16,064 nucleotides of DNA from a virus: UHGV virus genome UHGV-0097682; one strand, given 5' to 3'. Below are positions 13,099-15,822 of the stretch, piece by piece. Each line of letters starts with the position of its first letter. The stretch's first letter is position 1. The notes under the pieces are model-generated. The model was given only the letters and a program-made list of their open reading frames with translations, was not told the DNA's origin and searched no databases. Made by a program: the position numbers and the translations under genes.

Positions 13099-13144
13099 TC
13101 GCTTTTCAGCGACGTAGGACGAATGTCCGTTGTTACAAAGAGCG
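13099..13144 (-). promoter_or_regulatory. nutR: nutR (boxA + boxB) N-utilisation site
   Basis: Minus strand has boxA CGCTCTTTGTAACAA, a 17-nt spacer, then boxB hairpin TCGCT-GAAA-AGCGA (5-bp stem, GAAA loop). It lies between the cro stop and cII. Confidence 0.55.
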
Positions 13145-13154
13145 GATCCGCTTA

Positions 13155-13370
13155 TTAAGCGGCTTTGTGTTCCGGCGGGAACACGTCATCAAGACTGACT
13201 TTTGCGCCTAACTTGTTTAGGCACGCAACAAGAGCACGGCATGTTTTAAGGTCTGGGAAGCGACGACCAGATTCCCAATGTCCGATAGCTCCCTGTGTGC
13301 ATCCAACTGCCTTAGCAAGTGTTGTTTGAGAGATATTCAGTGACTCTCGATATTTTCGTAGGTTGCTCAT
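13155..13370 (-). CDS. cro: Cro-like repressor (HTH), 71 aa
   Basis: Internal start of track ORF 13155-13541: MSNLRKYRESLNISQTTLAKAVGCTQGAIGHWESGRRFP... The ATG at 13368-13370 is preceded by GGAGGG. The HTH recognition helix (TQGAIGHW) is paralogous to the cI one (TQGGIGHW). It is divergent from cI. Confidence 0.8.
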   Translation of the reverse strand: MSNLRKYRESLNISQTTLAKAVGCTQGAIGHWESGRRFPDLKTCRALVACLNKLGAKVSLDDVFPPEHKAA

Positions 13371-13487
13371 ATGCCCTCCATAGTAAACACGAATAAAAAA
13401 ATACAATATGTACTTTGCGAATACAAGTAAAAATACATATTGTGCATGGATGGTTCCAGTACAGAGCGTAATAATAAGGACATGAAA
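13371..13487. promoter_or_regulatory. OR operator / pR-pRM divergent promoter region
   Basis: Intergenic region between divergent cro and cI. Imperfect palindromic sites of the form TACA-N3-TGTA occur at 13402-13412 (tacaatatgta) and 13434-13444 (tacatattgtg), with a weaker candidate between them. Confidence 0.6.
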
Positions 13488-14138
13488 ATGAAATGGTATG
13501 AACTGGCTAGATCCAGAATGAAAGAGCTCGGCATAACTCAAGAGAAGTTAGCCGAAGAGCTAGGTATGACGCAGGGTGGGATTGGACACTGGTTGCGCGG
13601 ATCTCGTCATCCATCTCTTAGTGATATTGGTGTGGTGTTTAAATACCTTGGTATTGATAACATATCATTCAACCACGACGGGACATTTTCACCTGTTGGC
13701 GAATACTCATCGGCCCCAGTTAAAAAACAATATGAGTACCCTGTTTTTTCTCATGTTCAGGCTGGGATGTTCTCTCCAGAACTCAGAACCTTTACCAAAG
13801 GCGATGCGGAGAGATTGGTAAGCACAACCAAAAAAGCCAGTGACTCTGCATTCTGGCTTGAGGTTGAAGGTAACTCAATGACCGCACCAACAGGTTCCAA
13901 ACCCAGCTTTCCTGACGGGATGTTAATTCTGGTTGACCCTGAGCAAGCTGTTGAGCCCGGCGATTTCTGCATAGCCAGACTTGGTGGTGATGAATTTACC
14001 TTCAAGAAACTGATCAGGGATAGCGGTCAGGTGTTTCTACAGCCACTAAACCCACAATACCCAATCCCATGCAATGAGAGTTGTTCCGTTGTGGGGAAAG
14101 TTATCGCCAGCCAATGGCCTGAAGAGACGTTTGGGTGA
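13488..14138 (+). CDS. cI: CI repressor: N-terminal HTH domain of non-lambda specificity fused to a lambda-type C-terminal autocleavage/dimerisation domain (S24-like)
   Basis: Track ORF 13440-14138. The likely start is the ATG at 13488 (MKWYELARS...), with aagga 8 nt upstream; the ATG at 13482 is an alternative. The C-terminal ~130 aa match lambda CI by recollection, including the Ala-Gly cleavage site (VQAGMF), the catalytic Ser (GNSMT) and Lys (FTFKKL). The N-terminal domain differs from lambda. Confidence 0.9.
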
Positions 14139-14177
14139 TGAAACCACTTTTATCTACAATTTACAGGGCGGTAAACA

Positions 14178-14735
14178 TTGGCAAAAATAGATGATTATCA
14201 GCCAAGCCAAGTAGAAGTTGATAAAGTACTTTATTGTAAAAAAATAGTTAACTTTTCTGGCGTTAAATGGAAACAGAAACCAAGTCGCTCTGATATGTGG
14301 CTACAAGCCCATATCATCCCCTTGGATGAGGATTGTATACCTATACAAGGGCTAAAGTTTGAACTGAAATGGAAACCAGATCAGGATTCAGAACCTGATG
14401 ACCCGATTTCTTACCCTAAAATAAATATTATTGCTTTCTATCATAACAAGAGGGTTTTCGCGGTAGATACCTATCACTTTGACAAACACACGAATAGTTA
14501 CAAGGTCGATCATCCGAAGTACCAAGATATCATTTACGGTGCTCACTACCATGTATACTATGAAGAAGCTGGATACTATAGTGATAGAATAGCGTTTCCA
14601 ATCGAAGATGACATAAACCCAGATGACCTGGTAGGGTATTGGAATTACTTCTGTAAACATCTGAACATAACTTACTCTGGGAGAATACCTTTACCGCTTG
14701 AAGATGAGTCGGGGCAAATGGGGTTTGGAATATGA
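14178..14735 (+). CDS. Hypothetical protein, 185 aa, His/Tyr/Asp-rich; first gene of the AT-rich operon downstream of cI (rexA position)
   Basis: Track ORF with a TTG start; the first in-frame ATG is at codon 40. There are no TM segments and no Walker motif. Codon usage is visibly AT-rich compared with cI. Its stop overlaps the next gene's ATG (ATGA). Confidence 0.6.
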   Translation: MAKIDDYQPSQVEVDKVLYCKKIVNFSGVKWKQKPSRSDMWLQAHIIPLDEDCIPIQGLKFELKWKPDQDSEPDDPISYPKINIIAFYHNKRVFAVDTYHFDKHTNSYKVDHPKYQDIIYGAHYHVYYEEAGYYSDRIAFPIEDDINPDDLVGYWNYFCKHLNITYSGRIPLPLEDESGQMGFGI

Positions 14736-15484
14736 TGTGCTCAACAGTGATCTCACAACTAGGTTTCGAATGCCATCCAATAGGCAAGACCTTGAGAATT
14801 ATCAGTCCATTCACTTACTGTGATGATGGAGAGCATGTCGGTGCCTTTATCCGTGAAGTCAATGGTAGGTATTTAGTTAGTGACAGATGCGATGCCTTAA
14901 TGAATATGGAGGCAAGAGGGATCTCGCTTACCAAAAAACGACTTGATGAGATACGACAATTACTGCTTAAAGAAGGCGCAGAACTCAATGCTCGAGGAGA
15001 AATCATTGCTTGGGCAACAGAAAAGGATGTCGGTGCGATTACATCGAACATAATTAGAGCTGGTATACTCGCATCAACTTTGTCGTTAGACTGGTATCAG
15101 CCAGTTCAAGCTGAAAAGTTTGAAAGTATGGTTATTGATTATCTATATCACACAGAGCTTAGAGACGCACTTTCTCTTCGTGAAAACGTATATGGCTTGA
15201 GTGGACATCAAATTACCGTCCCTGTAACAATAAAAACCGACATACCTAAATACGTTTTTACATCAAGCGTGAAACACGGAGGAAGCTGGAATAGTGCTTA
15301 CTCATTGCTTGGGAAACTAATTGATCTTAAAGCTTCAAGTGAGGAGTATAACAACAGATTTGTTGTTATAGACAGCGAAGCAATTGGTGATCAAATGCAA
15401 CAACTCTCCTTACTCTTCCATGAATCAAGCCAAGTTCTACCATTCTCCAAAAGAGAGACTTGGGTTAAGAGACTTGCAGCATAA
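14732..15484 (+). CDS. Hypothetical protein, 250 aa; second gene of the cI-downstream operon (rexB position, but not RexB-like)
   Basis: Track ORF MMCSTVISQLGFECHPIGKTLRIISPFTY... appears soluble and has no recognisable catalytic motif by eye. It is followed by a terminator. Confidence 0.65.
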   Translation: MMCSTVISQLGFECHPIGKTLRIISPFTYCDDGEHVGAFIREVNGRYLVSDRCDALMNMEARGISLTKKRLDEIRQLLLKEGAELNARGEIIAWATEKDVGAITSNIIRAGILASTLSLDWYQPVQAEKFESMVIDYLYHTELRDALSLRENVYGLSGHQITVPVTIKTDIPKYVFTSSVKHGGSWNSAYSLLGKLIDLKASSEEYNNRFVVIDSEAIGDQMQQLSLLFHESSQVLPFSKRETWVKRLAA

Positions 15485-15489
15485 TACAA

Positions 15490-15515
15490 CCCGGCCTCAG
15501 CGCCGGGTTTTCTTT
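15490..15515 (+). terminator. Rho-independent terminator ending the cI operon (tImm-like)
   Basis: Stem cccggc / gccggg with a 6-nt loop, followed by ttttctttg, 6 nt after the stop of the 250-aa gene. Confidence 0.55.
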
Positions 15516-15702
15516 GCCTCACGTTCGCCCACCTAAAAACACATAACCAATTATATTTATTGAAAAATAAATAGATGCAACCCACTAAACCACGCAATTC
15601 TGATCTCTCCTTACATCGCCGAGGCAATACATCCACGCTAAAAAACAACACTATTAAATACAAAGCGTTATAAAAAACCACGCCAACTTACAACAAATTA
15701 TA

Positions 15703-15731
15703 TTGATCTTGTAAAGTACATATCGTACTAT
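15703..15731 (+). promoter_or_regulatory. Putative pL promoter with overlapping OL operator
   Basis: TTGATC (-35, 15703-15708), a 17-nt spacer and TACTAT (-10, 15726-15731). The operator-like palindrome tacatatcgta (15717-15727) overlaps the -10. The orientation and distance to nutL and N fit the lambda layout. Confidence 0.45.
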
Positions 15732-15777
15732 TTAACCGTCAGCAGGACGCTGGAAGCCAAATGGAACAGACTGGCAG

Positions 15778-15822
15778 GCTCTTTAAACAACGTCGACTCT
15801 CGACTACGTGGCTGAAAAGCCA
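15778..15822 (+). promoter_or_regulatory. nutL: nutL (boxA + boxB) N-utilisation site
   Basis: boxA GCTCTTTAAACAA (15778-15790), an 18-nt spacer, then boxB hairpin TGGCT-GAAA-AGCCA (15809-15822). This is the same architecture and spacing as the nutR candidate. Confidence 0.55.

Follow-up and report, generated by a model that had tools for sequence, protein, structure and literature searches.

Probable nutL and nutR sites with GAAA-tetraloop boxB hairpins in a lambdoid prophage with an interrupted N gene

Two sites in the immunity region

UHGV virus genome UHGV-0097682 was analyzed as a single window of 16,064 nucleotides (nt), in which both strands were read; all coordinates refer to the whole window. 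Two short sites, located at positions 13099-13144 on the minus strand and 15778-15822 on the plus strand, were read directly from the sequence. They are very probably nutR and nutL, respectively, of the N antitermination system of a lambdoid prophage, intact but without a functional N gene in cis. The strings and positions given for both sites in the original prediction were reproduced to the base.

The boxA element of nutR, CGCTCTTTGTAACAA (RNA CGCUCUUUGUAACAA), occupies 13144..13130 on the minus strand and is followed by c at 13129. The spacer stem-loop GGACATTCGTCC, GGAC-AUUC-GUCC, lies at 13128..13117 and is a dyad of the "reducer" type of H-19B nut sites. The linker UACG appears at 13116..13113, or as CUACG if the final base of the spacer hairpin is counted, and is followed at 13112..13099 by the boxB hairpin UCGCU-GAAA-AGCGA, which has a stem of five base pairs (bp), a GNRA tetraloop and a U-A closing pair. 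The corresponding elements of nutL are found on the plus strand. Its boxA, GCTCTTTAAACAA (RNA GCUCUUUAAACAA), is located at 15778-15790 and is followed by c at 15791; the spacer stem-loop GTCGACTCTCGAC, GUCGA-CUC-UCGAC, at 15792-15804, was obtained by folding, and its dyad was also flagged by a terminator scan. The linker UACG at 15805-15808 precedes the boxB hairpin UGGCU-GAAA-AGCCA at 15809-15822, again with a 5-bp stem and a GAAA loop. The spacers of nutR and nutL, cGGACATTCGTCCTACG and cGTCGACTCTCGACTACG, are 17 and 18 nt long, respectively, and both end in ctacg, as had been claimed; the loop and the geometry common to the two hairpins can likewise be read directly. The stems of the two boxB hairpins differ at one pair, G-C versus C-G at position 2. 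Therefore, one compensatory change is present inside the window, not the several that had been proposed; further changes of this kind occur in relatives and are described below.

The core GCUCUUU is present in the boxA of nutR, as it is in the rrn boxA UGCUCUUUA and in lambda CGCUCUUA. When G15777 is included, the boxA of nutL agrees with the rrn boxA at 8 of 9 positions. The boxA consensus is YGCUCUUUA (PMC2724277). At both sites boxA lies 5′ of boxB on the same RNA, 24-25 nt upstream (CGCUCUUUG for nutR and GGCUCUUUA for nutL). The string GCTGAAAAGC, common to both sites, occurs exactly twice in the window against an expectation of 0.06, and none of 200 shuffled sequences reached two copies. 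A longer common string, CTACGTNGCTGAAAAGCNA, is also found twice (0.00 expected), and the shuffle expectation for the boxA-gap-boxB pattern is 0.00.

Gene identities were assigned from Pfam and from annotated related phages. The region has a lambda-like gene order, P(DnaB-like)-O-cII-nutR-cro-pR/oR-cI-two open reading frames (ORFs)-terminator-pL/oL-nutL-N. The first gene of the pR transcript is cro (13155..13370, minus strand; 71 residues), which matches Pfam HTH_3 (4.2e-12) and is annotated as Cro in PhiR57_1. The cI repressor gene (13446..14138, plus strand), for which the position of the ATG was checked, codes for HTH_3 and Peptidase_S24 domains and is annotated as cI in related phages. A pR-like promoter, TTGTAT-17-TATTTT, is predicted at 13426..13398 on the minus strand, where it overlaps the operator half-site AAGTACATAT; a pL-like promoter, TTGATC-17-TACTAT, is predicted at 15703-15731 on the plus strand, with the same operator word at 15714-15723. 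A simple promoter scan with a threshold of 9/12 reported neither of them, as each scores at most 8/12 against the consensus. Therefore, the operator words and the annotation of the Shiga toxin 1 (Stx1)-converting phage AP005153 were used. Both candidates match promoters and operators annotated in that phage, in which the equivalent of pR is labeled "putative major rightward promoter".

The nutR site begins 10 nt past the cro stop codon, on the pR transcript and upstream of cII-O-P-nin-Q. The nutL site is located about 45 nt downstream of the pL-like promoter, and a further 116 nt separate it from the start codon of N. With promoters predicted from sequence, nutL is thus placed between pL and N, and nutR after cro and before tR1 and cII. 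This placement agrees with the transcript directions assigned earlier, plus for pL and minus for pR. The tR1-like region between nutR and cII (13014..13098, minus strand) was recognized by its likeness to H-19B: 82 of the 85 nt that follow the nutR boxB are identical to the H-19B nutR/tR1 region. The latter was used as a Rho-dependent terminator in vitro by the Sen laboratory (PMC3526286). By this similarity, 13014..13098 is probably a Rho-dependent terminator and would be the first target of the N-modified polymerase.

The N gene is interrupted. A 5′ fragment of 30 codons, MSRKTEFKGTAASRRRARRANLQSQEAISS (15921..16013, plus strand), ends at a stop codon created at the junction with an IS66-family insertion sequence (IS). 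This fragment codes for the entire arginine-rich motif (ARM); the central and C-terminal parts of N are absent. The left end of the element, GTAAGCGTGCAGC... / GTAAGCGTGC..., spans 16010..16064 and was identified by alignment to intact and interrupted loci. The terminal repeat reads GTAAGCG..., and the 8-bp target ATCAGCTC is found at 16002-16009. In avian pathogenic Escherichia coli (APEC) IMT5155 a second copy of the target adjoins the distal end of the element, inverted repeats are present, the element is annotated with tnpA, tnpB and tnpC (IS66), and RefSeq gives two N pseudogene halves. The same junction was found in IMT5155 and two other complete genomes, which are the top three among the matches listed (5,426 complete E. 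coli genomes) and the only ones among those matches that extend past the junction. The intact 90-residue N of PhiR57_1 is identical to the N of the window through residue 30, and the intact N from identical phages matches Pfam N_peptide PF25694 with an E-value of 1.5e-32. A search of PDB sequences with the 90-residue N returned no match. Because the IS66-family element cuts N after codon 30, there is no working cognate N in cis. With N truncated, recognition of boxB by the ARM, as originally proposed, cannot result in antitermination driven by the resident gene, and the nut sites are usable only by an N of the same class supplied in trans. Speculatively, the 30-residue fragment, which consists of the ARM only, could bind boxB and interfere with the N of an incoming phage of the same class. 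RefSeq also lists a 60-residue "hypothetical protein", WP_000438342.1 (IMT5155), at a position equivalent to 15761-15943 (plus strand), which spans nutL into the start of N; this ORF is probably an annotation artifact and not a gene.

Conservation, covariation and loop type in relatives

For comparison, 190 loci were gathered from annotated phages, IMG/VR contigs and one genome per species. For each locus with a recognizable N start, the N-terminus was recorded together with the hairpins found after UACG in two places, upstream of N and downstream of cro. The search was anchored on UACG, as a boxA-plus-hairpin pattern missed the H-19B-type sites with a degenerate boxA. A looser anchor, ACAAYG...TACG without any pairing requirement, was tried as an unbiased control and was rejected on account of many chance matches in coding DNA. 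In that scan the sole nut-like site with fewer than five pairs is the Oslo-type nutL, the stem of which is closed by a C.C mismatch. This boxB, GCUC-C-GUCAA-C-GAGC, in which C.C closes the pentaloop, occurs in the Salmonella phages Oslo (L006 5854) and 103203_sal5 (L008 5879), and the same mismatch is present in P22 nutR, CCGC-C-GACAA-C-GCGG.

Two classes of ARM were distinguished. The class A ARM, G[ST]xx[SGTA]RRR[AEV]xR[AS]xx[LV]Q, which includes that of the window, was found at 167 loci with 28 distinct N-termini. A 4-nt GNAA loop is present at nutL in 165 and at nutR in 139 of the 167 loci and a pentaloop in none; at the remaining loci no site was found, plausibly due to contig ends. The class B ARM, RRRERLKA[KQ]A[LI]A (type RRRERLKAKALA), was found at 12 loci with 4 distinct N-termini. 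The loop is of 5 nt at nutL and at nutR in 12 of 12 loci, and its sequence is GACAA except in the Oslo-type nutL (GUCAA). The association between ARM class and loop length is perfect over the 179 loci, which represent 32 distinct ARMs and three types of N body. A class A ARM and a tetraloop are combined with a 90-residue body in the window and in Citrobacter, with a long H-19B-like body in epsilon34, and with a lambda-like body in Tatumella, the N of which is 49% identical to lambda N. BLASTP aligns AAGRRRVRRADLQ with AQTRRRERRAEKQ, the ARMs of Tatumella and lambda N, respectively. The loop type follows the ARM and not the N body, and the ARM and both nut sites appear to move as a module among at least three unrelated N bodies. 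The N of Tatumella terrea (L093 5001-5321) is a natural chimera of ARM and body, and both GAAA tetraloops and spacer hairpins occur in its nut sites.

The original prediction would have been refuted had the motifs not been conserved at equivalent positions in related prophages. They are conserved, with compensatory changes, in relatives from Escherichia, Shigella, Salmonella, Citrobacter and Tatumella, and the nutL and N sequences are identical in VT2-Sakai-type Shiga toxin (Stx) phages and many E. coli prophages. The linker UACG is invariant in 30 of 30 distinct aligned nut sequences, and CUACG precedes boxB at both sites of the window. The boxB stems of class A relatives are UGGCU, UCGCU, CGGCU, AGGCU, UAGCU and UGGCC. 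Among the 30 distinct sequences, 3 of the 5 boxB pairs are altered on both sides (22 cells), and the covariation score is 0.434 compared with 0.108 in shuffles. None of 500 shuffles reached this score, and sliding the partner columns makes it collapse. In 28 of the 30 sequences the stem is closed by a U-A pair. The tetraloop is GAAA in most and otherwise GCAA or GUAA, the sole varying place being the N of GNRA.

The spacer hairpins also keep their pairing in relatives. The nutR spacer stem appears as GGAC/GUCC, GGCC/GGCC, GGGC/GCCC and GACC/GGUC. For nutL the stems are GUCGA/UCGAC, GGUGA/UCACC and GAUUC/GAAUC, with the loops CUC, ACAC, ACUC, AUC and GCAC. G.U pairs are found in the stems UCGCU/GGCGA and GAUUCG/UGAAUC, and the GNAA loop is always on the transcribed sense strand. 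The G.U pairs and the strand of the loop therefore indicate an RNA structure rather than a DNA palindrome.

A covariance-model search had been suggested as a check. The model was built from 16 nut sequences, with the lineage of the window excluded, and it picks only nutR and nutL, with 46.1 bits at 13097-13136 (minus strand) and 40.3 bits at 15784-15824 (plus strand) and E-values of about 1e-10 and 1e-9, respectively. The next-best score of this model is 7.2 bits, and no third nut site was found in the window. A search of the window against Rfam gave no nut-site family; its matches were two tRNAs and one chance match to a long noncoding RNA family.

The boxA of nutR is kept at its position in the window-type, POCJ13, Citrobacter and Tatumella sites and is absent from the epsilon34-type nutR. 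The boxA of nutL is kept in the window-type, POCJ13, Citrobacter (UGUUCUUUA) and Tatumella sites and is absent from the epsilon34-, H-19B- and HK97-types.

Known N systems, mechanism and alternatives

Sites of this textbook kind are well known, and their spacer-hairpin architecture has already been dissected in H-19B. The order boxA, spacer stem-loop, CUACG and 5-bp boxB is the same in the H-19B/HK97/933W-type sites. H-19B nutR, which has been footprinted experimentally, contains two hairpins according to PMC3526286. Its sequence in the Sen-laboratory oligonucleotides (RS663) is ...CACAAU GGACAUUCGUCC UACG UCGCU GACAA AGCGA, in which the spacer hairpin GGACAUUCGUCC and the stem UCGCU/AGCGA are identical to those of nutR in the window; a spacer hairpin of this architecture is found at both sites of the window. 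The C-terminal part of H-19B N (CLPNVALYAAGYRKSKQLTAR) is also present in this N type. The H-19B loop, in contrast, is GACAA (5 nt), the form also found in HK97, whereas that of the window is GAAA (4 nt). The window ARM, RRRARRANLQ, is two residues shorter than the H-19B ARM, RRRERLKAKALA, and the window-type N of 90 residues has about 30 central residues fewer than H-19B N. Both sites of the window have a near-consensus boxA, whereas in H-19B boxA is absent from nutL and reads CGCUAUUU in nutR. The GACAA pentaloop and the RRRERLKAKALA ARM that define the H-19B class are both absent here. Because of the loop GAAA and the ARM RRRARRANLQ, the sites of the window are assigned to a sister specificity class. 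In the work of Neely and Friedman in 2000 (Mol Microbiol 38:1074), the H-19B spacer dyad reportedly acted as a structural "reducer" that joins the flanking elements, as judged by disruptive and compensatory mutations, and H-19B N is said to require NusA but not boxA, NusB or S10. The dependence on boxA, NusB and S10 may differ from that of H-19B in the present system, both sites of which have a good boxA.

In lambda, boxA is likewise followed by boxB at the same places, after pL and after cro, and the 5-bp stem, the U-A closing pair and the GNRA-fold loop are as in the window. The lambda ARM, RRRERRAEKQ, aligns with the core RRRxRRA..Q, and the epsilon34 type has the heptapeptide RRRERRA in common with lambda; the class A ARM is thus related to that of lambda. 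The lambda loops are pentaloops, GAAGA and GAAAA, in which one base is extruded from the GNRA fold, whereas the loop of the window is a plain tetraloop. Lambda has neither the spacer hairpin nor CUACG, the window-type ARM has no counterpart of lambda Trp18 (E26 here), and only the Tatumella relative has a lambda-like N body. P22 has a consensus-type boxA, CGCUCUUUA, a longer spacer of about 11-12 nt, a 5-bp boxB and the same N C-terminus, ALYAAGHRKSKQITAR; it differs in the ARM of gp24, TRRHERRRKLAIE, in the loop GACAA, and in having no conserved spacer hairpin plus CUACG.

The N of epsilon34 (gp43) carries an ARM of the same class, GSAAGRRRERRAALQ. Its nutL boxB has a GAAA loop on the stem CGGCU/AGCCG, and in the epsilon34 record a 14-mer identical to the nutR boxB of the window bears the annotation "putative NutR - boxB". 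It differs by a long H-19B-like N body, the absence of a recognizable boxA, and a nutL spacer hairpin of the GAUUCA/UGAAUC type. Residues 28-120 of epsilon34 N were described as highly similar to other lambdoid N proteins, and a novel BoxB specificity was predicted by Villafane et al. in 2008 from the divergent N-terminus (PMC2629481). In a literature search that key older papers (Neely & Friedman 2000, Juhala 2000, Casjens 2004) fell outside, no description of a natural GAAA-tetraloop boxB, of co-variation between ARM and loop length, or of the VT2-Sakai nut sites was found; no priority is claimed for the tetraloop class or for the co-variation.

The mechanism proposed here is modeled on lambda, P22 and H-19B, by homology with which boxB binding, Nus factor use and antitermination are assigned. 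The plus-strand pL and minus-strand pR RNAs would each carry boxA, the spacer hairpin, CUACG and a 5-bp boxB with a GAAA tetraloop. A lambda-like ARM (RRRxRRAxLQ) would bind the top of the boxB stem and the GNRA-fold loop as an α-helix. The remainder of N would then be loaded onto RNA polymerase together with NusA bound to the spacer and perhaps NusB/NusE bound to boxA, and the polymerase would read through the Rho-dependent tR1 after nutR and subsequently through later terminators. The spacer hairpin would reduce the effective distance between boxA and boxB, as mutagenesis reportedly showed for H-19B. The residue at the position of lambda Glu9 is variable among the ARMs (A, E or V). According to PMC12027372 (citing Legault 1998 and Tan & Frankel 1995), lambda Glu9 is functionally inert, and lambda N reads the GNRA fold that a GNRNA pentaloop adopts when one of its bases is flipped out; the U7-A13 closing pair is required. 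The variable A/E/V residue and the U-A closing pair are therefore in agreement with the lambda data, and lambda-like recognition of a true GNRA tetraloop by a helix in the groove appears to be the most economical mechanism.

The combination of a GNAA-tetraloop boxB with an RRRxRRAxLQ ARM may constitute a distinct N specificity class, orthogonal to those of lambda (GNRNA pentaloop, Trp18 stacking) and P22/H-19B (GACAA), a proposal put forward tentatively and given somewhat less than an even chance. Because its loop is a plain GNRA tetraloop, this class would lack a flipped-out loop base altogether. If so, the flipped-out base would be dispensable for assembly of the antitermination complex, and a new orthogonal peptide-RNA tether would be available. 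The natural co-variation of ARM and loop size on interchangeable N bodies provides ready material for comparing the ways in which GNRA folds are read by arginine-rich helices. For prophage annotation, the sites fix the direction and extent of the early pL and pR transcripts. Delayed-early expression of the prophage is probably blocked unless an N of the same class comes from a co-resident phage. The same N/nut type is found in Shiga-toxin phages, VT2-Sakai among them, in which Q and the toxin are expressed as a result of N-dependent read-through.

The identification of the sites as nutL and nutR is supported by their position and orientation, the intact N of identical phages, their conservation in relatives, the covariation of the stems and the strict association between ARM and loop. 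Comparison with shuffled sequences, the other control named in the original prediction, was favorable for the isolated 14-nt boxB hairpins of nutR and nutL, which fold with −5.7 and −6.3 kcal/mol, respectively (z = −4.6 and −2.8); 3 and 7 of 200 shuffles fold equally well. The nutR spacer hairpin is found in both the minimum free energy (MFE) and the centroid fold. A 6-bp dyad, CCGCTTATTAAGCGG, lies across the cro stop codon at 13148-13162, directly upstream of the nutR boxA, and the RNA helix predicted near this stop codon is GCGG/CCGC, which includes the first boxA bases of nutR.

Several observations weigh against the identification or against a function of the sites. In a context of about 60 nt the boxB hairpins are weak relative to shuffles (z = −1.3 and −1.2), and in the MFE fold of nutL (15772-15822) boxA (GGCU.UUUA) pairs with the boxB loop and 3′ arm, and the boxB hairpin is left unformed. 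Thermodynamics by itself is weak evidence, and the decision falls to the comparative data; here, the sequences used for covariation were picked by a script that demanded pairing, so that the figure of 100% paired is partly obtained by construction, and many of the loci are near-identical copies that represent about a dozen independent lineages. The boxA heptamer GCTCTTT alone occurs 5 times in the window against 3.1 expected, which is not significant; with its frequency at the chance level, the weight of boxA lies in its fixed position and strand relative to boxB. The role of boxA here is uncertain, since several related nut sites lack it and it is reportedly dispensable in H-19B. The assignment of function rests on homology and covariation, and the literature search found no experiment on this pair of ARM and boxB. 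Finally, N is disrupted, and the sites are not currently used by an N of the prophage itself.

Complementarity of boxA to boxB similar to that of nutL is present in nutR. Co-variation of the first boxA bases with the 5′ arm of boxB (GGCU/GGCU in nutL, CGCU/CGCU in nutR) was considered and rejected, as it is lost in Citrobacter and Tatumella; the alternative boxA:boxB pairing is probably a coincidence.

Three other explanations for the identity of the hairpins were weighed. Intrinsic terminators or attenuators, or elements for RNA processing or stability, could appear as small GC-containing hairpins in leader and intercistronic RNA, and dyads within the nutL spacer and close to the cro stop codon were picked up by the terminator scan. 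However, neither boxB is followed by a U-run (GAUCACCC, GUUCCAAG), stems of 5 bp are too weak to terminate and too short for RNase III, and such elements, which are judged very unlikely here, would not be expected to have a loop type so strictly tied to the type of the N ARM in mosaic phages. It is extremely unlikely that the inverted repeats are DNA operators for a dimeric protein and not RNA hairpins. Both are perfect 5+5 repeats, and symmetric changes would preserve a palindrome as well, but the stems vary freely among lineages with pairing kept, where a protein operator would conserve its sequence, and the G.U pairs of relatives are A.C mismatches on the opposite strand. The asymmetric GNAA loop and the order boxA-hairpin-CUACG are always on the sense strand in both divergent operons, and the real cI/Cro operators are elsewhere, marked by the AAGTACATAT words at both promoters. 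Chance likeness of two short hairpins, which the shortness of the motifs and the frequency of boxA alone might suggest, is refuted by the comparative data and has next to no probability: shuffle expectations are 0.00-0.06, the covariance-model E-value is about 1e-10, and the position is kept in 165 of 167 class A loci.

A further proposal, that the nut sites are relics without present function in a cryptic prophage and persist since the disruption of N is recent, is given only slightly less than an even chance. N ends after codon 30, the presence of the junction in only three genomes among the matches listed (5,426 complete E. coli) suggests a recent event, and the nut sequences are still identical to the sites of viable phages. 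This proposal bears on current use, not on identity, and is compatible with the sites being nutL and nutR. Against it, several lambdoid prophages matching this region are often present in one E. coli strain; the region is matched at a median of 2 places per genome, and at up to 15, so that an N of the same class could act in trans.

Neighboring features

The genes downstream of nutR on the minus strand are cII (12717-13013), O (11646-12545), the DnaB-like P gene (10220-11671), the nin genes and the gene for the Q antiterminator (6419-7042). A strong terminator-like hairpin with 12 pairs and a T-run is located at 12741-12768 on the plus strand, antisense to the 3′ end of cII. In lambda and P22, the terminator of the oop antisense RNA occupies this position. 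Two tRNA genes, tRNA-Thr(tgt) and tRNA-Asn(gtt), are found at 5989-6144 (minus strand) between Q and the gene for the holin (5423-5746). In Stx phages this slot is occupied by tRNAs and stx genes; that of the window contains no stx.

Between cI and pL, two ORFs are present at 14178-15509 (plus strand) in the position of lambda rexA and rexB, followed by an intrinsic terminator at 15488-15509 (plus strand). The ORFs code for 185 residues with a weak match to DUF6978 and for 250 residues with DUF1828, respectively. These ORFs are candidates for exclusion or defense genes expressed from the prophage.

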